Below, piece after piece: positions 1,080 to 59,118 of a DNA stretch of 64,000 nucleotides. Below the pieces are notes generated by a model. The model saw only the letters and a program-made list of their open reading frames with translations. It was not told where the DNA came from and searched no databases. The translations under genes and the position numbers were made by a program. Location of the stretch: assembly GCA_046563655.1 (NCBI GenBank), contig CM102289.1:6882001-6946000 (forward strand), in the 5' to 3' direction. This DNA comes from Yuukianura sp. NJ FZ-2021. Its lineage: Eukaryota. How positions within the stretch are numbered: the first letter of the stretch is position 1; every line of letters begins with the position of its first letter.

Positions 1080-3080
1080 TCACACCCTCGATCTATCCAC
1101 GTATGGTTCAGTATACAACTTCAATGGATTACTAAAAAGTTCCCAAAATCCACTGTACGGAGGTGTTACTGGCAAATTGCATGCGCACCACTGCTTAGGT
1201 ATCCCAGCATCATCACAACTTCGACTCTCGGGAAGCAATTGCAAAAGATTTCGCCCGAATTTAGATGTCTTCATTTTCAATTTTGCAATTTCATCTTGGT
1301 TAGTTTCTTTTCGTCCCAGTTGAGATAAGGCTAGGAGTGTTTGGAACACGTCGTAATGGCTGACAACTTGTTTAGAATTTTGGTCTATGATGGACTCCAC
1401 TTCTGGGATGAATGTAGTAAGGCGTTGTGGGATTCGGATAAGCAAAAGTGGCAGCCGACGTTCTATTAAACCTGCGTTAGATTTTGCGTATCCACCTTGG
1501 TAGAAACCATGGTCTCCCATTACAAAAATCACAGTATTTTCCAGTAAATCCTTTGAATCTGCTATCGACTGAAAGAATTCCAGTGTCGCATTTTCGATTG
1601 TGCCCAACGTGTTGAAATAATCGTGAAAAGGCCAACATAACCAAGGCATCGTGAATGAAGGAATCAAGTTGTTCAGTTTCCTCAGAATCTTCAGTTCATA
1701 GTCGAAAAGGTATTTCCAGAATGGAGTATTCCCCAGACAACGGTCCTTTATGAAAAGAACAAAAAATTGACGAAACGGATAGACAAGGAATATCGTGTTA
1801 TAACGTACCTCGGTATTTCCGCTGAGTGCTTCCCAAGCAGTGAATAAAGGACGTGGATAAAAATCGGTCGGCGGGCGCATGAAACCCTTTTGAATATCAT
1901 AATTGAATGTTCCAATAATTGGATCGTCTTCCATGAAGGCTGTTGCGAAATTAGATCGGTGAAAATATTTCCAAATGAACTCTGTGTCATCCCAATAGTC
2001 GATCCATTTCTTTTCATCGAATAAGGTTTTAGTAGGAACTCCAACAAGAAGAGGAATAGCATTTAAAAACGTTGGTTCCCCCAGAGCGTGGTGTTTACTG
2101 AAGTAGGTAAACTTCAAATCCTCCATTAAGAATTTCATTGTACGTGGAAGGTTACGAAAGGCATCTGTTGCCGAAGTAGAATCCAGTACCAGCACCATAA
2201 CATTTAAAGGTAATTCCGTTTTCGGTACAGCATCCCAGAACGCTTTTTTTGATTGTAGATTTATTTTGTTAATGGAGACATCGCTTTGGTACTCCAGTTT
2301 TGTTTCTGAACCGACATCACATGAGATTATTACATGCTCGGTCTCAATGGATTGAACTTTATTGGTTTCATCAAAGGCTTTTCTCGATTTCAGTACGAAT
2401 GTATCGTCAAGCAAGACTAATGGACGGTCAATTTCATGAACAGTGCACTTCCTTCTGTCGTATACGTTGGGATCCAGCAGTGTCAGGGTCTAAATACAGA
2501 CGCAAAGTTGACAGTGATTACATTGCTTTGCTTATATGTGATATATGCTTACTGTAGAGTTGATGAATTCCGTAAATTTAGTCGAATCACCGCATTGACT
2601 GATAGTAACATTCATCTTCTTGGTCGTAGCAACGTAGGCTTCCGATCGTAGCGGAATGTCTGCTATCCTACACTTTGAATTCGTGCCAACAATTCCATTG
2701 CCATTCTCACTTCCTTCTTGTCCAAATAATGACGGCGTTCTAGATGTAGTAGATAATTTCCAATGCCATGGAAGGAAGTAGAAAATCACAACCGATATGA
2801 CTAGAGCAGTGAATAACTTCAACAAACGAGAAGCATGTGATGTAAGGGACTTATGACCAAGATGATAATGATGTTGAGATCTTTGAGAAGGAGCTCGTGC
2901 CCCTGCGTATTCGTATTCTCTCTGTGCCACGCTAGGGTCAGCAGTGGGGTCAAACGGTTGGTGTTGACCATGATTCTTTAGAAGTGGTACTGATGACGAA
3001 GCGACATCGTTTTTGTCTCCGCTACCAAGTTCAAATTCCCAATCGTGCTCCCATCCTTTCTGATTATTCTGAACTTCCAT
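1080..3080 (-). CDS. DUF229 family protein (alkaline phosphatase/sulfatase superfamily, type II membrane)
   Basis: N-terminal TM segment (LFTALVISVVIFYFL). Motifs NVMVLVLDSTS, RNLPRT, GEPTFLN, GFMRPPTDFYPRP, NTVIFVMGDHG, ERRLPLL, SCDDAGIPKQWCAC. Introns at ~2490-2555 and 1746-1808. The true 3' end is uncertain. Confidence 0.85.
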
Positions 3081-11493: not shown

Positions 11494-14400
11494 ATGGCCA
11501 TGGCTTTGGCCCCGCCGGGACGTTACTGTTTCCATTCCATTTGCGGCACTCGGGTTGAACTGTCAAATGGAAATCGAAGAGCCGAACGCGTACTGGCCAA
11601 GTCGGACTTCAACAATGGACTCACCTTTAGTCACAAACCACTGGAAACAAATGCGATCTTTCAAGTTAAACTGGATAAGAAGGTTGAGCTAACGTTAATT
11701 TTTACTAATTATGATCCGATTTGGATCGTCATGTACTATAATTTGGCTTTGGATTGATTTAGTAAACTACAACCTCAGTGTGCGATTTTGATGGTTTTTA
11801 AGGTTGGACTATGGAGCGGTAGTATTGAACTGGGTGTTACAACGATGAATCCTGATGCGATGACCAGGGAACAACTGCCGCAAAATGCAATCGAGTTACG
11901 AGGTGAAACCTGGGTAATTAACAAAACCATTGAAACTAAACTTCTGAATGTGAATTGTTCAATTAACATGAACTTTTGTTTCTGCAGTTAATGTCCAGCC
12001 GAACCATAATCAAGGATGGAGAATCACTGGTTGAAAATTACGGATTCGATTTGGAAAGCTTAGCTGAAGGAGACACTGTCGGTCTAATGCGTACAGCACA
12101 AGGCGGTCTCGTTTTCTTTGTCAACGGTACGTCGCAAGGCGTTGCTGCCGAATTCATTCCCACTGATGTGTACGTCATATGCAACCTCTACGGAAAATGT
12201 GCTCAAGTATCTCTGGTTGACGTTGAACTGTCTGAACAGCGTACAAACACAATCGAGTATGTTGTTCATGAAGAAGTGAGTCCAGTGTTAGTGGAACCTT
12301 GCGGAGACAACAACAACGAATCTGACAAGTTAAGATTTCACGACAAATGTGGACCTCTAGTGAAACTTTCCAGCAACAACAAAGTTGCAGAACGTCGAAG
12401 ACCTATGGAGGAATTCAACAACGCTGTAGTACTTACCCATCGACCTTTGCGTGAAAACGAACTTTTCCAGATTCGTATCGATGTGCTAATTAGGAAATGG
12501 TCCGGAAGCATTGAGTTTGGTCTGATTACTCAGAATCCAGAAATGTTCGAGTTTCCAGCTACAATGACAGTAATGCGAAGTGGGACGGTTGTTATGTCTG
12601 GAAATGGAATTCTTCACGATGGAAAGGCAGCGAATTCACCTTACACACATTTCAATTTGGATCAGCTGGACGAGGGAGACAGAATTGGAATACTGAAAAA
12701 ACCGGATGGAGAAATTCATTACTTCGTCAATGGAGCCGATCAAGGCATTGCTACAACAGGACTCACGCGACCCGTCTGGGGTGCAATCAACCTGTACGGA
12801 ATGGCAGCTAAAGTTACCATTGTAGAGCGAAACGAAAGGGAAGAACACAATCTTCGTGTCAATGTTCGAAGCTACGACTTCGGCAGTATCTCGGACTCAG
12901 ATGACGTTCTTCTGTTTCATCAGAATTGCGGATTCCATGCAGCTGTAATTAACAACGGGAGAACAGCACATCGTCCGAATGCAAGCGAAGACTTTAACCA
13001 TGGTGTTGTTTTGACCAATCGAAGACTGAGGGCTAATGAATTGTTTGAAGTTGTGCTGGACAGAGTTATTCCAAAATGGGCAGGTAAATTGACATGAACT
13101 GTTGATCAGCTGAGTTGAAAATTGTTATGCAATTTCATGTGAATTTAGGTTCAATTGAAATTGGTGTGACAACTCACATGCCAACACAGTTGGACTACCC
13201 TTGTACAATGACTAATCTCCGCAGTGGTACTTGGATGATGACTGGAAACGGTAAGTTGTTGGTCCATTCTCTATTAACGTAAACAAAACAGTTGCAAACT
13301 ATTTAACTTTTCATCTTTGAACTTAGGAATCATGCACAATGGAACTTCAGTTGTAGACGATTATGGAGAATCTCTTGATCGTCTCAAAGTCGGCGATCGT
13401 GTTGGAGTGATGAGGAAGGAATCTGGCAGTCTACACTTCTTTGTCAACGGTGAAGATCAAGGACCAGCAAGTACTGGAGTTCCTCCTAACATTTACGGAG
13501 TCATTGATGTAAGCTAAACTTCCTATCATCCCGTCTTCAATATAACTTCATGCATCATGTGTATAAAAGTTTATTATGCTTCTTATCTAGCTCTACGGAC
13601 AAGCAGCTCAAGCAACAATAGTTTTCCCTACAGCGTTGAATGAAACCGGATATTACGAAGCTGGTGTTTCAGTTCCACCGGAGAATAAAGCTACCGTGGT
13701 CGTTACCGAGTGTGGACCTCAAGGATCCGATGGAAGCGGGACTTTCCTTCCACTAGCAATGGCCGAATCATACTTTTACGACGGTGACGGCAGTGACATT
13801 CGGTTTCATTCTCTGTGTGGTAAGAATGCACGAGTGAGCAACAATGGATTAACTGGATCAAGGCCAAATGCTTTGGGAGAATTCAATGCTGCAATTGTAC
13901 TTAGCAATCGACCGCTTAGAGATAATGAACTATTCGAAGTTGTCATTGAGAGAATGGTGGATCGATGGTCTGGGAAGTAAGAATTCAATAATTACAAACG
14001 ATACCAGACGTTCCGTTTTTAATTTTATCTAAGAATGATTTGTGTTGCAGTATTGAAGCGGGATTGACAGCAATTCGTCCAGAGGATTTGGTTTTTCCAA
14101 ATACCATGACTGACATGGAGCATGACACTTACATGCTCAGCGGAGCTTCCATTCATATCGTGAGTTGCTAGTTACGGTATTATGACATGAAGCACTAATT
14201 ATTCAATACTAAGCCAAAATTACCTGTTTGATAAGGGAGGAGAAACGGTGACGAATCGTTACAACTGTAACCTGGACACACTGACTTGTGGCTCAAGAGT
14301 TGGCATGATGCGCAAATCAGATGGCAGTTTACATTACTTTGTCAATGGAGAAGATCAAGGCGTGGCAGCACTTGACGTTCCTTCAAGTAAGACCAACCAC

Positions 14401-32697: not shown

Positions 32698-34715
32698 ATG
32701 CTAAATCAGAGTTCCAAGGACAACGTTTCAGAAGAAACGATAAACATGAACGGAATAGTGCGACGGAGATCGTCAGCAGGCGTACTACCACCGTTTGGCA
32801 GAAAATCGTCTACTGGTGCGTCCTTTTCTGACATAATGGATCACCTCGCTAGTAGTGAGTACGTTAAAGCCGAATTTACAGTTGACGAGCCACCGACTAT
32901 TGAAAAATGGAAACTATGGCCGCAAGTAAATTTTTTCAAAATTTTGAACTTCAAAATTTTGAAATACTTAGCACATCAGTTTTCATAATTTTGTGTTAGG
33001 TGTTAGTTGCCTTCTCCATATCGTTTGGAAACATGATTATCGGACTAGTGTCAGCGTATTCAGCAACTGCACTTGCGTCTTTGAATCATCCCAATTCCAC
33101 AGTTCTCATTGACATTGATGGGCCAGAGGTGAAATTTTATTTTATATTTTATTTATATTATATTATATATTTTAAAATTATGCCATTAGGCAACATGGAT
33201 CGGAAGTTTGATGCCACTGGCGGCATTGCTTGGAGGAATCCTTGGTGGCTCAATGACAGAGTTCATGGGGAGGAAAGGCGTGTCACTGCTAATGGCCCTG
33301 CCAATGTTTCTCTGTATGCAAATTATTTTTATTCATTTTAATAAAATATACAAATAGATTAATATATTTTATTATCTGAATAGCATGGATCATGATAGCC
33401 CTTGCTCCAAACGTTCTTATCATTTGCATAGGAAGAACAATTGGAGGATTTTGTGTTGGAGTGGCGTCGTTGTCGCTGCCTTTGCTTATGGCTGAAAATG
33501 TTCGACCAGAAGTTCGTGGAAGTAAGTGAATTTTTTAAAAAGCTGACAAATTTTGAAAAAAAAAATTAACAATTTTTTTCAGTGTTGGGACTTTTGCCCA
33601 CTACAATCGGAAATGGCGGAATTCTAGTTTGTTACGTAGCAGGAATGTACATGGACTGGTCTCAATTGGCTTATTTTTGTGGCATTCTTTCGCTTCCATA
33701 TTTACTTACAATTGTTTTTGTTCCTGAATCGCCACGATGGCTGCTAGCTAAAGGTATAGCATTTTATAATTTAAGAAGATAATGTATAAATTTAAACATA
33801 AATATTATTTAATGTTCCCTGTTTGTTTTATACAGGACGAGATGAAGATGCAAAATGCTCTTTATATCGCCTCCGCCTGTGCAAATCTACTGTGGACAAA
33901 GAATTTTCGGAGATCAAACAAATCTGTTTGAACATCCAAACCCAGAAGGAAGTGGATATCAAAATTTCAGATTTCGGATTTTCCGGGCTTTACTACAAAC
34001 CGATGATGGTTGCACTTGGACTTATGGCACTCCAACAACTTTGTGGAATCAATCCAGTAAAAAATTAATACAAAATTATATAATTTTTACCTAAAATAAC
34101 TTTTTGTTTTCACTTTAGGTAATCTTTTACACCGTCTACATCTTTCAAGTCTCCGGATCCAACCTCAACCCACATCTCTGCACAATCATCATCGGAATTG
34201 CCAATTTTATTGCCACGCTCGTCGCCAATATCTTCGTGGACAAAGTAGGACGAAAGGTGCTTCTCATCATTTCAGACATCGTGATGCTCCTAAGCTTACT
34301 GACCTTAGGAACCTACTTTTTCTTGCGTGACCTTGACCCGACCTTGGTAGAGCCCTTCAAATGGGTCCCCCTGGGCAGCTTTACAATCTTTGTGGTAGCA
34401 TTTTCACTAGGTCTTGGACCAATTCCATGGATTGTGCTTGCTGAAATATTTCCACTGAGGATACGAGCAATGGCAGGGTCAGTAGTGACAGCTTTTCACT
34501 GGATCTTGACATTTGGAATAGTTAAGGCCTTCCCATACCTCGTGACAAAGTTTGGTCCACAGACAGCATTTTACCTGTTTGCAGTGATTTGTCTCCTTGG
34601 AGTATACTTTATCATTAGGAAAGTACCGGAAACGAGAGGGCGCAGCTTGGAACAAATCGAACGGAAACTAATTAAGTCCAAAAGTCAAGGGACCTTGGGT
34701 GTGAGCAGTGCTTAA
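32698..34715 (+). CDS. Tret1: Facilitated trehalose transporter Tret1-like (sugar porter, MFS)
   Basis: WIGSLMPLAALLGG, GRK, PEVRG.LGLLPT.IGNGGILVCYVAG.YMDW..LA, PESPRWL, QQLCGIN, DKVGRK, GLGPIPW...EIFP, PETRG. Confidence 0.9.
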
Positions 34716-37957: not shown

Positions 37958-39941
37958 CTACTTGTTCCGCTTGTAAATCGTGTTGAGGAGGTAGAAGAAC
38001 GGCTTTTGTGGAATATCCGCTCGCAAATTTTTGATCATATTGACAATGTTTCGGTGCACATTGATTTCTTCTTCTTCGCAGTGGGCTTTGACGTTGAGCT
38101 CATCGTACAGACGCTTCACTTCAGCCTCGTCCATGTCATTCTTGTGACCATAGCATTTCTATTTAAAAATGGAAATTAAGTTTAGTCTATAATTATATTT
38201 TGACTAATCATAACTTGACGGTGAGTGAACTAAGCTTAAGGTTTTTCTTATGATTAACCATAGTTTGAACTTACTTCGAGCAATCGTCGTTCCTCTTCTG
38301 AAGCAAGTTCCAGAGCTTTGACAATGAGCCAACTGCACTTTCCGTCAATAATGTCCGTACCAATTTTTCCCGTTACTTTGGGGTTACCAAAACAGTCCAA
38401 AAAGTCATCTTGGACTTGAAATAAATAGCCAAGGGCGAGGACCAATTTTTCCACAGCTTTAAAAACTGCCTCATCTTCAATTCCAGCCTGAGAAATGAAA
38501 AAAAAAATGAAATTTTGAAAAAAAAAACAGTTTATGAGATGTTTTGGGGATTGGCAATTTCGGTCCGTTTGGCAGAGACTGCCTTACCAAAATCATGGAA
38601 CAAGAAACTGGGGAGTAGAAAGTGTAGTAAGAGGTTTTGTACTTGACAAGAACTTCGTAGTTCTTCTGCGTAAAGCTACAATTTAAGAAAAAAAAAATTA
38701 ATGAAAATTAAATTTTATTGGTATTTAGTTTTAAAAAATGTATTTTGAAAAAAAAAATCATACTCATTCATATCTCGTTTGAGTGAGAATCGAGAGTCTA
38801 AACTTTGCCCAAAGATCGTTCTGAGACCGGTTCTCTGCATTTCCTTCACGAGGCGACTGTACTGAGGGTCACTTCCGAGGTATTTGTTCAAAATGTAGTA
38901 CGCAAAGTTCTCCAACATAAATGCATCTGAAAAAATAAAGCAAAAAATACATTATAACTGCAAAAAGAAAAAAAAACTTGATGAAAAATGCAATAAACTA
39001 CTTGGGAACTGCAAAAAATTGCATGAGAATTGCAAAAAACTGCAAAGGGTTCATGAGAAATCGCGTATCATTAGCAACTTTTTCTTGTTCAGAAAAAAGT
39101 TAACCGTTATTCGCCGGGCTTTAGGGTAGTTTAGTATTTAATTTAATAAGTTCAAGCGTACCATTAACAGCGTTGAGCCCAACTTCCGTCAGTGTATGCC
39201 AACACGGTTTCCCACGCCTTGTCTCAGAACCATCCATTATATCATCAGCAATTAGAGCGCATGCTTGCATCTAAACAATCAATCACCAATCTTAATCATG
39301 CAACAGGAACAACAGACATAGGTGAGCAACCACTTTTTTATACTTGGAGCAATAAGTGGTCAAAAGTGGTTGAAGAAAACAATGGGTGAATGACCTCTCT
39401 TGGTGCATGAGAAGTCCAAAACCATTAGCTAAGAAAGTGAAACTCACAATTTCTGCACACCATCCCAAAACGTATGACTTGAAATCATCTTCGGCCGTAC
39501 GTTTCTTTTTTACTTGACGGTAGACATGAATTCCTAGCATTGCCCTGTAATTAAACAAATCATTCAAGAAAGCATTTAGTTTTCAGAAATTTTAGGCAAA
39601 AGTCTTCAGTCTCAAAAGTCTAAAAAATTTAATTGTGGGAGTACCAAAGTAGCGCGTCCATGAAAATTTAAGAGGGACAACTTTTTTTGAAAAACAGAAA
39701 AGCAAACAATTTTTTGAAGAGAAAGTAGGACATGTTTGACGCATTTTGAAAAATACCGGATACCGTACCTGATTTGTTTGCCAAACGGTACCGTTTTCTG
39801 CAGTACTTCTTGCAACCAAGTTAGACTGGGCTTGATGTCTTGGTAATCTGGATCAGCCATTGCGTCCGCCACAATTTTTGTCCAAGCATTGTCAAATCCT
39901 TTTCTCACGGCCAGATTGAGTACTTTCTCATGGAACTTCAT
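37958..39941 (-). CDS. Farnesyl diphosphate synthase-like trans-isoprenyl diphosphate synthase
   Basis: [39 protein letters not shown] (FARM), [49 protein letters not shown] (SARM), C-terminal IYKRNK* with TAG at 37958-37960. Confidence 0.92.
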
Positions 39942-41556: not shown

Positions 41557-43117
41557 TTAGACGTTGTTTTCTTTCAATTGATTCATTTGTAAGTTGTAGG
41601 CAATTATTGAGCGAGCTAGTGCTGTAACATTCCCGACACCAAATCCACGAGCGCCTTTTCGTTGAATTACTTCAAAGAAAAACGTATCCTTGTCAAAAAT
41701 CGGATGAGTAAAGATCTGCATCAGGTAACTAATAAAAAAAATATTCTATTCAAAAAATGAATCGAATTTGAAATGTTAGTTTTCAAAAATTCCCACCGTT
41801 CATTATGATTCTCATCCTCTTCGGTATCAAAAGTGTCAGCTTCATTGTCCAGCAGAATACCGCACTTCCTCAAAAGTTCAACATCCTCTCCCACTGACTT
41901 TATCACTTCAAGTTGACCAACCTATAAGAATATTCGCATTAATTAATAATCGTACAATTAACCCCAAAACTACTGGAATGATTACCTCACTGTAGTAAGT
42001 TGGAGGAGGTTGACGGAACAAAACGCCATTGCTGCGCATGCGCTCAACAGTTTTTACCATGTTTGAGGTATGAAGTCCAACGTGCTGTAAACCCGGACCA
42101 TTGTGGTCATGGATAAATCCTTCAATTTGTACATTTTCTAAAAAAAATACATAGATTATAGATTTTCGTGATTAGTTTGTCCATAAAAATTGAAGTTGAG
42201 GTAAACGTACTTATGTTCGGTAATGATTCGGCAACGACAAGCTTAAAAATCCTGTTCTCATCATTGTCAGGACTGGAGGACAAGCCAGTTTCGGAACACT
42301 TCCAGAATTCCATGGCTTTTAGTCGCAGTCCGGCGTCTCCGTCTATCACAAGTCCGTTCTCAAGGTCATCGTTTCTGAAACCAAAATTAATTTTTAAAAA
42401 TTTTCTAAAACTTTTGAAAATAAGTTCAATTTATTTAGAAATAACTCCTATTTTCTTGGCTTGCTAAGCATGTCCTTACCTGTTTGTCAGAAATCTCTTC
42501 ATGCCAAATGCTTTTTCGTACCATTCCAGGATTCCCGCACTTTCTCCCACTCTACACGCCACAGCGACATGATCTAAATGTGTGGTTGCATCATCATCCT
42601 CTGTTTCTGGAATGGAATTTAACCTCGTGAATCCAGGAATGAACCAGTCATCCCAACCTTTCTTCTCTATCAGCGTATGAACCATGTTGCCGCAAATGGA
42701 CGTAACAATGGCGTAGCGGAGTCCATCAATTTCCACAGGTTTCTGGACGACACGATGCTGCACTGAAGAAAGTCTGTCCATGGCTTCAGCCAAATTCTCT
42801 ACGCATAGAGCGACGTTGAATACTGAATCAATGTGCTGAGTGGATTTATGCAATTCTCCAGGCGCATGATCGCAGCAGAATGTAGTCCACGGTTCTCCAT
42901 GAATGAATTCGTTGTTGGATTCGTCATTTGCTTGAAAATCAATAATTTTTCTATAGGTGACGATGAATACTGTTTTACCACTTTGAAGAACAGTTTGCGA
43001 GCACTTCGGCGTTTCACGGTAACCGACCCTTTGAAACCGGAACTGATCTTCCAGCAATTTGACAATTTTTCCAGGAAGTCTTGTACACATTTCAATGTGA
43101 TTCAATTGGAGCTTCAT
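41557..43117 (-). CDS. HPDL: 4-hydroxyphenylpyruvate dioxygenase-like protein
   Basis: DSVFNVALCV, HLDHVAVACRVGES, GLRLKAMEFWKC, KLVVAESLP, GPGLQHVGL, PPPTYY, QIFTHPIFDKDTFFFEVIQRKGARGFGVGN. These segments resemble HPDL more than HPD. The start may lie in an upstream exon. Confidence 0.85.
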
Positions 43118-44388
43118 CTTGGCGTCCACTAAGGTTAGTTTCGACAGAGAATCTGAAAATGCGAAACTTCTGTATTAATTTGGTTTTATTCCTACGTTTA
43201 CTGTTTATATAGTACCTGGAGTATCCCGATTTGATTACCAGTCACAAGTCGCAATTAACTCTAATTCAGCAAATTATAACTTGTTCTTGGGAAAAGTTTC
43301 CTGTATAGGTACCAATTCCAACAAGCTGAAACAGGAACACGTCATTTTATTAACGTAATTCCTCAACTCTTCTTTTTTTTTAATGAAACCTAACCTAGTA
43401 TAATATAAACTATCAAGGGTAAAAGGTCAAATCAATTAAGATTGCCTTTGAGATTTATGCTGCTTTGTGCGTCAATCCCAACCCAGCAAAATCTCGGGTT
43501 GTATGGGTAAACAAAAATGAAAGTGAAATCGTTAAAGAAGTTAATATATTTTAGTTCTCTTGCATTTGTTTTGTAGTAATCTGTAGGTTTAAGCATTTGA
43601 TTCTTTGTTCCTTAACACTGTCATGTGCCCCAAACTCAGCCATACCTAGTTTCCCGCCACGAAATTTTAATTTGAGGCAAACGGTTAGGAGCGTAAGCCA
43701 ATGACCTTGCGGTGAAAAATCTATTTTACAGATGCTGACTGACACATGTCAACGTCTATAGACTACAAAACTGTAGTTTGCGAGTAGTCTAAAGTACATA
43801 GGTAACCTGATTGGCAGATTAATGATGTCAGATTCAGAATCGACAGCAGAAGTTTATTTTTTAAAATACATAACAACTCTTGTTGATTTGAATGGGAAAC
43901 GGATGCACGATCTCTTTTTATGTGTAGAAATGATGATGATTTCGACTCGAGTTAAAATGAAGTGGCGGGAAGCGGAAGTGGAGATTGAGGAACACAGTGA
44001 CAGTACAGGTAGCATTAGATTGACGAAAGTTTAGTTTAATACACACAGCCATTAATTAAAAAACAGAAAGTAATTAAAACTTGACAACGTTACCGTCACT
44101 TCTCACTGTCACTTCTCTGGAATTTCTACTTGAAAGGTAATCATTCGCTATTGAAAAGAAGCACTTATAGTGTGTAATTAAAGTTAATAACTTACTTGAC
44201 TAGCAGTGATGCTGATGATGAATTTTTGTTGACAGAGCCGAATCCTATCAAATACGAGACGTGGAATAGGATTAAACAAGAGCCAGAAAGTGAAAGAAGT
44301 GACTAGACTACTACAAGAAGGAGATTCTGGGAAGATTGTGGCCTCGTTTTTAACCGGAACAACAGACTTTGGTCTTTTCTATTTTTAG

Positions 44389-57807: not shown

Positions 57808-59118
57808 TCAAGATATCGCTGATTTCATCTGCGGAAGTTGTGATTGAGACGCTGAGTACAAATCGTCAGCAATTTTAAGAATTGAGTCTGACTTTTCGCA
57901 ATGGCGAAGTAACTGCTTTGGTATCACATCATGCCCAAAATGGGCTCCACAGATGGCTCCAGCCATTGAAGCAATCGTATCAGTATCTCCACCAAGTGAA
58001 ATACTGTAGGCAATACACCGCACCAAAGAATTATCCGCCTTTGCCACAAAGAATAGACAATGAGCTATAAATCATGAATCATGAGTTAATTAACTTATAA
58101 GGGAGCTGTAAAATACTTACTTCAAGTCCAGGTATTGGTTTGGTGCTAAGCAGAAAAGCGTAAATTGCTGTTGGAACAGAATGTATAGCAGCGACACCAA
58201 CTCCTAACTCTTCTCCGACTTCTTCGGCACTTGGTAATACTTTTCTTCCTAAGAATTCCTTGACTTTGTTCAATTTTGACGTAAAAGTGGTCTGATCTTC
58301 CACTTCATGTTCCGGCGGAGGACAGGAGTCAACTTGATTCACTTCTTTTTCAACCCTTTCCATATGATGGAGTAGTGTATCCAGGAAGGCCGTGGTGTCC
58401 AGCTCTTTTGAAGAATCTAAATGTAGCGCCTCTCTCACCGCTAGAGCTTGTAGAATGGCTCCTTGAATTGCGTTGGCATGTGCATGTGTGATTCTTGAAA
58501 CTGACGAAGTCATGGATAGAAGCTGATCCACTCCTTCACCAGCGTGACAGAAGAGGCCCACGGGGGCTGCTCGCATAGCTGCTCCGTTTCCGAAGGATCC
58601 TTGACCACTATATTGTTTGCGTGCAGCGTAGAAGGGATCTTCGACACCATTCCGTCGGAAATCCATAAAGACATCGTGAACACCAGATCCATAGCCTCTT
58701 TTCGGTTCAGCGAAGTAGTCTCTCATAAACCTGAAAGAAAAATTCGTTAGTTATTTGGCATTGGCGAAGCATTTTGAAGTTTGAGTCACCTTTCTGCTAA
58801 ATGTTGCGGGTTGAGTCCTTTATGCTGAATTAACGATTCGGTTACCCCTTTTGTCATCACTGTGTCGTCAGTATACGATTTGTAAGGGACTAAAAAATAA
58901 AGGGATCGTATCATTTCATTCAGCTCAGCATCCTTGTTAACAGTTCAAAATTTTTCCAAATTACCTTTAGTTTTAGGATCAAATAATTGAGCAAAGTAAG
59001 TATTGACCTGTCCAAACGTTCTGGAAGTACACGTTTCAAACGGACTTGCAAGACAGTCGCCCATCAACGCTCCCAGTAATGCTCCGCGGAACTTCGACAG
59101 TACACCTACAGCAGCCAT
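57808..59118 (-). CDS. ADPRS: ADP-ribosylhydrolase ARH3
   Basis: KFRGALLGALMGDCL, YTDDTVMT, RGYGSG, GSFGNGAAMRAAP, SVPTAIYAFL, GGDTDTIASMAGAI.GA. Confidence 0.93.

Follow-up and report, generated by a model that had tools for sequence, protein, structure and literature searches.

A farnesyl diphosphate synthase paralog with a Cys-Ala floor in a springtail, a candidate prenyl diphosphate synthase for products beyond C15

The 64,000-nucleotide stretch of Yuukianura sp. NJ FZ-2021 analysed here (assembly GCA_046563655.1, contig CM102289.1, positions 6,882,001 to 6,946,000 of the forward strand), hereafter referred to as the window, carries on its reverse strand a gene of the farnesyl diphosphate synthase (FPPS) family at positions 37958-39941. 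On balance, it is somewhat more likely than not that this gene encodes a functional condensing prenyl diphosphate synthase whose products would extend beyond C15; both the longer product and its metabolic use are inferred. In the proposed mechanism, the paralog, having the type-I eukaryotic FPPS fold, would bind an allylic diphosphate together with isopentenyl diphosphate (IPP) and would retain the head-to-tail condensation of both substrates. Because the two aromatics of helix D that make up the elongation-pocket floor in canonical FPPS are Cys94 and Ala95 in this protein, chain growth would not be halted at C15, and products of C20 or more are predicted, namely geranylgeranyl diphosphate (GGPP), geranylfarnesyl diphosphate (GFPP) or long all-trans polyprenyl diphosphates, which would then be available as precursors of springtail higher terpenes. 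The condensing-enzyme profile is proposed because the IPP-contact residues are kept and the second aspartate-rich motif (SARM) is canonical.

The coding sequence was delimited from open reading frames (ORFs) and splice sites and runs from ATG to stop over seven exons, comprising 1044 nt that encode 347 amino acids plus the stop codon, with GT-AG borders in all six introns. The residues that define the floor are found in exon 3 (39162-39270, residues 91-127), whose first part (39232-39270) reads, on the coding strand, ATG CAA GCA TGC GCT CTA ATT GCT GAT GAT ATA ATG GAT. Thus, Cys94 (39259-39261) and Ala95 (39256-39258) occupy positions -5 and -4 before the first aspartate-rich motif (FARM) DDIMD (residues 99-103, 39232-39246), as the preliminary description had stated, and the same exon contains the RRG of IPP-binding motif 3 (residues 108-110, 39211-39219). 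Exon 1 (39769-39941, residues 1-58, ending in a split codon) contains the IPP-diphosphate motif GKQIR (residues 54-58), which replaces GKxNR, so that Ile57 (39771-39773) stands where canonical enzymes have Asn, and is followed by exon 2 (39448-39544, residues 58-90). Downstream of exon 3, exon 4 (38764-38926, residues 127-181) precedes exon 5 (38588-38675, residues 181-210), in which KTSYYT (38621-38638) includes the KT pair (residues 194-195) and Thr199, a Ser in canonical enzymes (human S219 in the numbering of 1zw5). The SARM FQVQDDFLD (residues 233-241, 38395-38421) and GKIGTD (38353-38370) are encoded by exon 6 (38275-38487, residues 211-281), and exon 7 (37958-38158, residues 282-347 and stop) encodes the basic C-terminal IYKRNK (residues 342-347, 37961-37978), immediately preceded by Thr341 (37979-37981), which is Lys in canonical enzymes. 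The earlier statement that GKxNR is altered to GKQIR, with FARM, SARM, RRG, KT and basic C-terminus present, was borne out by this translation. No second copy of the spliced product was found within the window by tblastn, in which the other matches all had E >= 1.

The assignment to the FPPS family was supported by the match of exon 6 to the Pfam family PF00348 (polyprenyl_synt; E 2e-21) and by the closest database protein, P0001 (338 amino acids), which is 92% identical over exon 6. This protein matched the solved avian and human FPPS structures over its full length with E values between 1e-72 and 1e-78, the best being 1ubx_A (4.4e-78), with wild-type 1fps at 1.9e-77, and no GGPP synthase or long-chain synthase was present among the 51 solved sequences at E <= 1e-20. 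In the HMMER alignment of P0001, the Cys-Ala pair lies opposite Phe-Phe of 1fps and Ala-Ser of 1ubx. The original paper on the avian FPPS chain-length mutant is reportedly that of Tarshis from 1996. From such alignments, Cys94 and Ala95 are the equivalents of Phe112 and Phe113 of avian FPPS and of Cys94 and Ala95 of EuTPT3 from Eucommia ulmoides, and the aromatic floor at positions -5 and -4 that marks eukaryotic FPPSs specific for farnesyl diphosphate (FPP) is absent from the window protein. The Ala-Ser floor of 1ubx matches the avian F112A/F113S mutant described in PMC7887238 (Kajiura et al. 2021), which lengthens the chains, in agreement with the earlier claim that small residues in place of both avian aromatics yield longer products.

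A natural precedent for the same pair of residues has been described in plants. According to PMC7887238, E. ulmoides has five genes of the FPS family, of which EuTPT2 and EuTPT4, carrying Tyr/Phe-Phe, are FPSs, whereas EuTPT1, EuTPT3 and EuTPT5 have Cys-Ala (Cys94/Ala95 in EuTPT3). It was reported in the same study that EuTPT1/3/5 do not complement yeast lacking FPS and that they produce ultrahigh-molecular-weight trans-polyisoprene. The substitution C94Y/A95F abolished the polyisoprene activity of EuTPT3 and shifted its dimer to the FPS type, the equivalent Tyr-Phe replacement in other EuTPTs led to FPP, and the reverse replacement in EuFPS1/2 resulted in products longer than FPP. Additionally, PMC6140472 (Lancaster et al. 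2018) reported that the stink-bug MhFPPS becomes a GGPP synthase when its Phe-Phe is changed to Met-Ser. The 36-residue exon-3 peptide of the window gene had EuTPT3 (7buu_A, IQACALVLDDIMD) as the best of its 54 solved matches (1.8e-10). Similarly to EuTPT3, the window protein presents Gln-Ala-Cys-Ala-Leu before DDIMD and retains the two DDxxD motifs together with the basic residues that bind IPP, and it is an FPS-family paralog, as are EuTPT1/3/5 beside the canonical FPS copies of Eucommia. The avian 1UBX mutant and the Met-Ser variant of MhFPPS share its scaffold (38-40% identity) and are non-aromatic at the same two positions. However, both are laboratory-made, whereas the window gene is natural and conserved across orthologs, and it carries further substitutions typical of its clade, with Ile for the Asn of GKxNR, Thr for the Ser that follows KT..Y and Thr for the Lys that precedes IYKR.

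The integrity of the IPP site was evaluated next to these floor residues. The IPP-binding motifs (IBMs) have been defined by regular expressions in PMC10108439 (Protein Science 2023), and the window protein matches those for FARM, SARM, IBM-3, IBM-5 and IBM-6, failing the strict patterns of IBM-1, IBM-2 and IBM-4. The use of these strict expressions to classify isoprenyl diphosphate synthases (IDSs) and terpene synthases (TPSs) was dropped, since most canonical FPPSs fail three of them; among 27 canonical controls, failures were seen in 16 for IBM-2, 15 for IBM-4 and 21 for IBM-6. Because canonical enzymes fail the patterns too, the contact residues themselves were considered instead, taken from 1zw5 as G70/K71/R74, E107/Q110/L114, R126/R127, T215/Y218/S219, F253/Q254/D257, K271 and R365/K367. 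All of them are retained in the window protein, including those listed for the failed motifs, with the single exception of S219, replaced by Thr199; the retained residues include K55, R58, Q92, R108/R109, FQ-DD, K251 and the basic C-terminus. At the structural level, an AlphaFold2 model was obtained for the protein of L001, an ortholog from a metagenome contig, with a mean predicted local distance difference test (pLDDT) of 93.1 and a predicted template modelling score (pTM) of 0.90. VIA-align gave Z 44 and a root-mean-square deviation of 1.4-1.8 Å over ~340 residues against human FPPS and the leaf-beetle PcIDS1, so that an all-helical FPPS fold is predicted for this ortholog. Canonical pancrustacean FPPSs share fold, length, motifs and IPP site with the window protein (~40-44% identity) but differ from it in their Phe-Phe or Tyr-Phe floor and GKxNRG motif and in forming a separate clade.

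The search of metagenome contigs with P0001 yielded two confirmed loci, L001 and L002, among 44 pattern matches. L001 comprises 1167 nt, is intronless and is collinear with the window gene, without gaps, across all six exon junctions, sharing its starting Met, and the exon model is supported for this reason. The comparison of both sequences resulted in 92.5% amino acid identity and 80.3% nucleotide identity, with proportions of nonsynonymous (pN) and synonymous (pS) differences of 0.048 and 0.76. Since pN/pS is ~0.06 with synonymous sites saturated, a saturation that leaves dS not computable, these values indicate strong purifying selection on the window gene. The Cys-Ala pair, within QACAL, was kept throughout the ortholog group of four (window protein, P0001, L001 and L002) despite this synonymous saturation; the three intronless, transcript-like relatives that keep it have 83-93% amino acid identity to the window protein. 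In a broader set of 427 fetched FPPS-family proteins, a recognisable FARM and RR pattern was present in 383 and absent from 44. Among the former, the floor was Phe-Phe in 196, lacked an aromatic at either position in 31 and was Cys-Ala in one, P0001. The Cys-Ala pair is thus not a product of chance. Regarding L002 (138-356 and 349-1182), its reading frame shifts inside an A-rich run encoding a Lys stretch, which probably reflects a sequencing slip at a homopolymer, and it reads GKQMR where the window gene reads GKQIR.

The phylogenetic position of the gene was established from a search with P0001, which returned 1273 proteins at E <= 0.001 among 2174 candidates, and from a profile of the clade, which returned 1440 among 5695. 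From the 427 fetched proteins, 58 rows were picked, namely the closest hits, the ten best extra representatives and a cross-section of named animal, fungal and plant sequences, and the tree was inferred under LG+C20, with support given as ultrafast bootstrap and Shimodaira-Hasegawa-like approximate likelihood-ratio test (SH-aLRT). The window protein, L001, P0001 and L002 formed one group (100/100), which joined four contig proteins with floors AC, AC, AA and AA in a set of eight rows (98/97). A 13-row clade (85/96) added to this set P0132 of Orchesella cincta (floor AS), P0134 and P0233 of O. dallaii (AC and SS), the contig protein P0058 (SF) and P0022 of Folsomia candida, a protein of 350 amino acids with floor CF, first motif SDIID and GKQIR. 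None of the 13 rows of this divergent clade, to which a long branch leads, has a Phe-Phe floor. The canonical springtail FPPSs of Orchesella, Allacma and contigs formed a separate clade of 12 rows (100/100), with ten FF, one YF and one CL floor, nested in the pancrustacean FPPS clade (100/99). The window gene is thus placed apart from the canonical springtail enzymes, and at least the two Orchesella genomes carry canonical and divergent copies together.

Ten alignment columns, at least 85% conserved in 27 canonical enzymes but different in 10 or more of the 13 rows, set the divergent clade apart. Among them are the two columns of the floor and those of Ile57 (Asn in GKxNR), Thr199 (Ser following KT..Y) and Thr341 (Lys preceding IYKR). 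The clade is small in public data, because a profile search of 1.84 billion cluster representatives found only P0122, P0124 and P0135 at 535-566 bits, the next scoring 414, and a word-indexed search found no clade members beyond the eight from the profile search. Two longhorn-beetle proteins of near-double length, P0123 of Exocentrus adspersus (581 amino acids) and P0231 of Molorchus minor (625 amino acids), stood at the top of the profile search with 573-597 bits; they may come from FPPS-like genes in tandem or in fusion, or from gene models that were joined. A further protein, P0127 of O. cincta (454 amino acids), lies inside the canonical springtail clade and yet has a Cys-Leu floor and GKQIR, which suggests that the aromatic floor was lost once more in recent times.

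Several observations weigh against a product longer than C15 or against its assignment to the whole clade. Small floor residues do not set a fixed length, as the Met-Ser variant of MhFPPS halted at GGPP (PMC6140472), and the pocket could be closed off by residues elsewhere. The closest superpositions of the L001 model were with ordinary FPPS and PcIDS1, with EuFPS1 at Foldseek rank 12, and EuTPT3 (7buu) was not among its best 50 Foldseek matches; the modelled monomer resembles FPS-type subunits. The six-residue insertion of the EuTPTs, visible as an offset of +6 of 7buu relative to 7bux upstream of the motif, is absent from the window protein, which has no extra residues there in comparison with canonical FPPS. 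Expression was visible only through the transcript-like relatives, the sequencing runs listed for this organism being five of DNA type, from two studies, and none of RNA. As to the clade, its 13 rows lack strong support (85/96, not starred), and approximately unbiased (AU) tests bearing on the age of the duplication rejected neither the placement of the Folsomia P0022 with canonical springtail FPPS (p 0.161) nor a single clade of all springtail sequences (p 0.291). Because the first of these placements is kept, some members of the divergent clade may be housekeeping FPPSs. Finally, the [7]-[9]-terpenes of springtails, which may be linear, prenylated or cyclised at the head and were found in 16 of 23 species, were proposed in PMC11321324 (iScience 2024) to be recruited from the ubiquinone (PDSS) pathway.

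The differences from the EuTPTs also bear on the origin of the shared motif. Full-length comparison of the window family favoured animal FPPS over EuTPT3 (1fps 1.9e-77 versus 7buu 4e-64), and ultrahigh-molecular-weight polyisoprene from springtails was not found in the literature consulted. A shared ancestry with the plant TPTs was likewise not recovered, the window gene nesting among metazoan sequences. Because animal FPPS scores higher, the insertion is absent and the modelled subunit is FPPS-like, the likeness to EuTPTs is convergent and of independent origin. A bolder proposal is that the gene represents an FPPS-derived animal synthase of long-chain (C30 or longer) all-trans polyprenyl diphosphates that converged on the Eucommia Cys-Ala floor and would feed linear [7]-[9] cuticular terpenes, or supply GFPP for sesterterpene synthases, independently of the PDSS route. 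Such a role is tentative and would have to be regarded as doubtful.

The alternative that survives best, itself rather unlikely, is that the gene encodes a second isozyme for FPP, or for geranyl diphosphate (GPP) and FPP, tissue-specific or differently regulated, in which other pocket residues cap the chain. This is in line with an active site that, outside the floor, is canonical save for the change of S219 to Thr199, and with the FPPS-like modelled subunit. Additionally, the clade relative P0022, with its Cys-Phe floor, was the single FPPS-family protein of F. candida in the similarity and profile listings and may be the working FPPS of that species. According to PMC5253651, FPP bound at the allosteric site of human FPPS has its phosphate hydrogen-bonded to Asn59 and its tail shielded by Lys347. 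The equivalents of these residues are Ile57 and Thr341 in the window protein and are replaced in most of the divergent clade; FPP product feedback may consequently be altered there, as far as two residues can tell, which would fit changed regulation rather than a changed product. On the other hand, the literature cases available in which both floor aromatics are lost on an FPPS scaffold all lengthened the product, the Cys-Ala pair was kept under saturated synonymous divergence and canonical Phe-Phe copies exist beside divergent ones in the Orchesella genomes, all of which agree better with a longer product.

It is distinctly unlikely that the gene encodes a prenyltransferase of unusual substrate or unusual coupling, with a large pocket for branched or homologous allylic substrates or for the prenyl branching of nitidanes and viaticenes. 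Prenylated, branched higher terpenes do occur among springtail lipids, and bulkier substrates could fit a larger pocket. Lepidopteran type-II FPPSs are a precedent for unusual substrates, and the floor positions of CfFPPS2 (6b02) read Gly-Phe. In a mealybug study, the FPPS-like candidates carried NDxxD, and the change of the first SARM Asp to Asn was proposed to be important for irregular coupling. The window protein, however, has the canonical SARM DDFLD rather than an altered one, and its IPP site is conventional.

A less probable explanation still, and a very improbable one, is an IDS-derived terpene synthase, as in flea beetles and stink bugs, which, instead of lengthening a chain, would ionise FPP or GGPP to form a terpene that is released or cyclised. 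Non-aromatic residues at -4 and -5 are given in PMC6140472 as a hallmark of the IDS-type TPSs of insects, and MhTPS lost its activity when the aromatics were put back; the window protein shares this hallmark, and, similarly to it, the insect enzymes, MhTPS and PsTPS1 among others, are duplicates derived from FPPS-like genes. However, in the insect enzymes the condensing activity and the IPP-binding residues are lost. According to PMC10108439 and PMC6140472, IDS-type TPSs lose IPP-diphosphate-binding residues through K71/R74 substitutions or an insertion, R127Y, or the change of KKxR to SDAW, the latter being carried by MhTPS (PMC6140472). No such loss was found at the Lys and Arg residues of IBM-1 and IBM-3 in the window protein, which keeps K55, R58 and R108/R109, and this intact IPP site speaks against a terpene synthase. 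Besides, microbial-type TPSs of springtails already account for their cyclic terpenes. Therefore, where the preliminary description had left the choice between a long-chain prenyl synthase and a terpene synthase, the former half gained from the intact IPP machinery, the purifying selection and the EuTPT and MhFPPS precedents, whereas the latter lost ground with the retained IPP-binding residues. As to a decaying or non-functional duplicate, which the long branch to the clade might suggest, it is scarcely credible, given the intact frame, the canonical splice sites, pN/pS of ~0.06 with pS saturated and the transcript-like intronless relatives.

The neighbourhood of the gene was also inspected. 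On the same strand, ~1.6 kb upstream, lies a gene with several exons (41560-43174, reverse strand) that belongs to the HPPD/hydroxymandelate-synthase family. The best matches of its 232-residue exon were 2r5v_A (2.9e-07) and bacterial HPPDs, with no animal HPPD structure among its four matches, and another exon matched Glyoxalase_4 (9.5e-06). This neighbour may be HPDL-like; it was reported in PMC12257120 that HPDL makes 4-hydroxymandelate for the headgroup of coenzyme Q10 (CoQ10), and the adjacency of a prenyl-chain enzyme to a candidate enzyme of the CoQ headgroup may be a coincidence. The other ORFs of the window identified with Pfam encode a DUF229 protein (1083-2489, reverse strand, 2.4e-79), a Neuralized protein (11967-13094, forward strand, 8.9e-68), a sugar transporter (34119-34712, forward strand, 1.1e-34) and an ADP-ribosylglycohydrolase (58082-58750, reverse strand, 6e-28). 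No terpene-related gene was found among these other Pfam-identified ORFs, which form an ordinary animal gene neighbourhood. For the Neuralized ORF, a database look-up gave Arthropoda as the commonest taxon.

Springtails cover their bodies with higher terpenes seldom met in other organisms, for which the preliminary description was not aware of identified enzymes. This no longer applies to the terpene synthases, since microbial-type enzymes have been characterised from springtails in PMC11665903 (PNAS 2024) and PMC13638087 (Angewandte 2026), the latter reporting that ScTC3 takes only GFPP. It does stand for the formation of the prenyl chain, which these papers do not discuss; the terms IDS, prenyltransferase and isoprenyl were not found in the text of PMC13638087, and no chain-forming enzyme is named in the parts available of PMC13638087 or PMC11321324. 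Likewise, a description of these FPPS/IDS paralogs of Collembola was not found in the literature searched. A terpene synthase that takes only GFPP and the common occurrence of linear [7]-[9]-terpenes point to a demand for such prenyl chains. In this context, the window gene and the small clade of Orchesella, Folsomia and contig sequences around it represent a concrete candidate for the supply of prenyl chains in springtails. If the proposed activity is true, the gene would provide in an animal, by nature, what the avian FPPS chain-length mutants provide in the laboratory, and its Cys-Ala floor would have converged, down to single residues, with that of the trans-polyisoprene synthases of plants.

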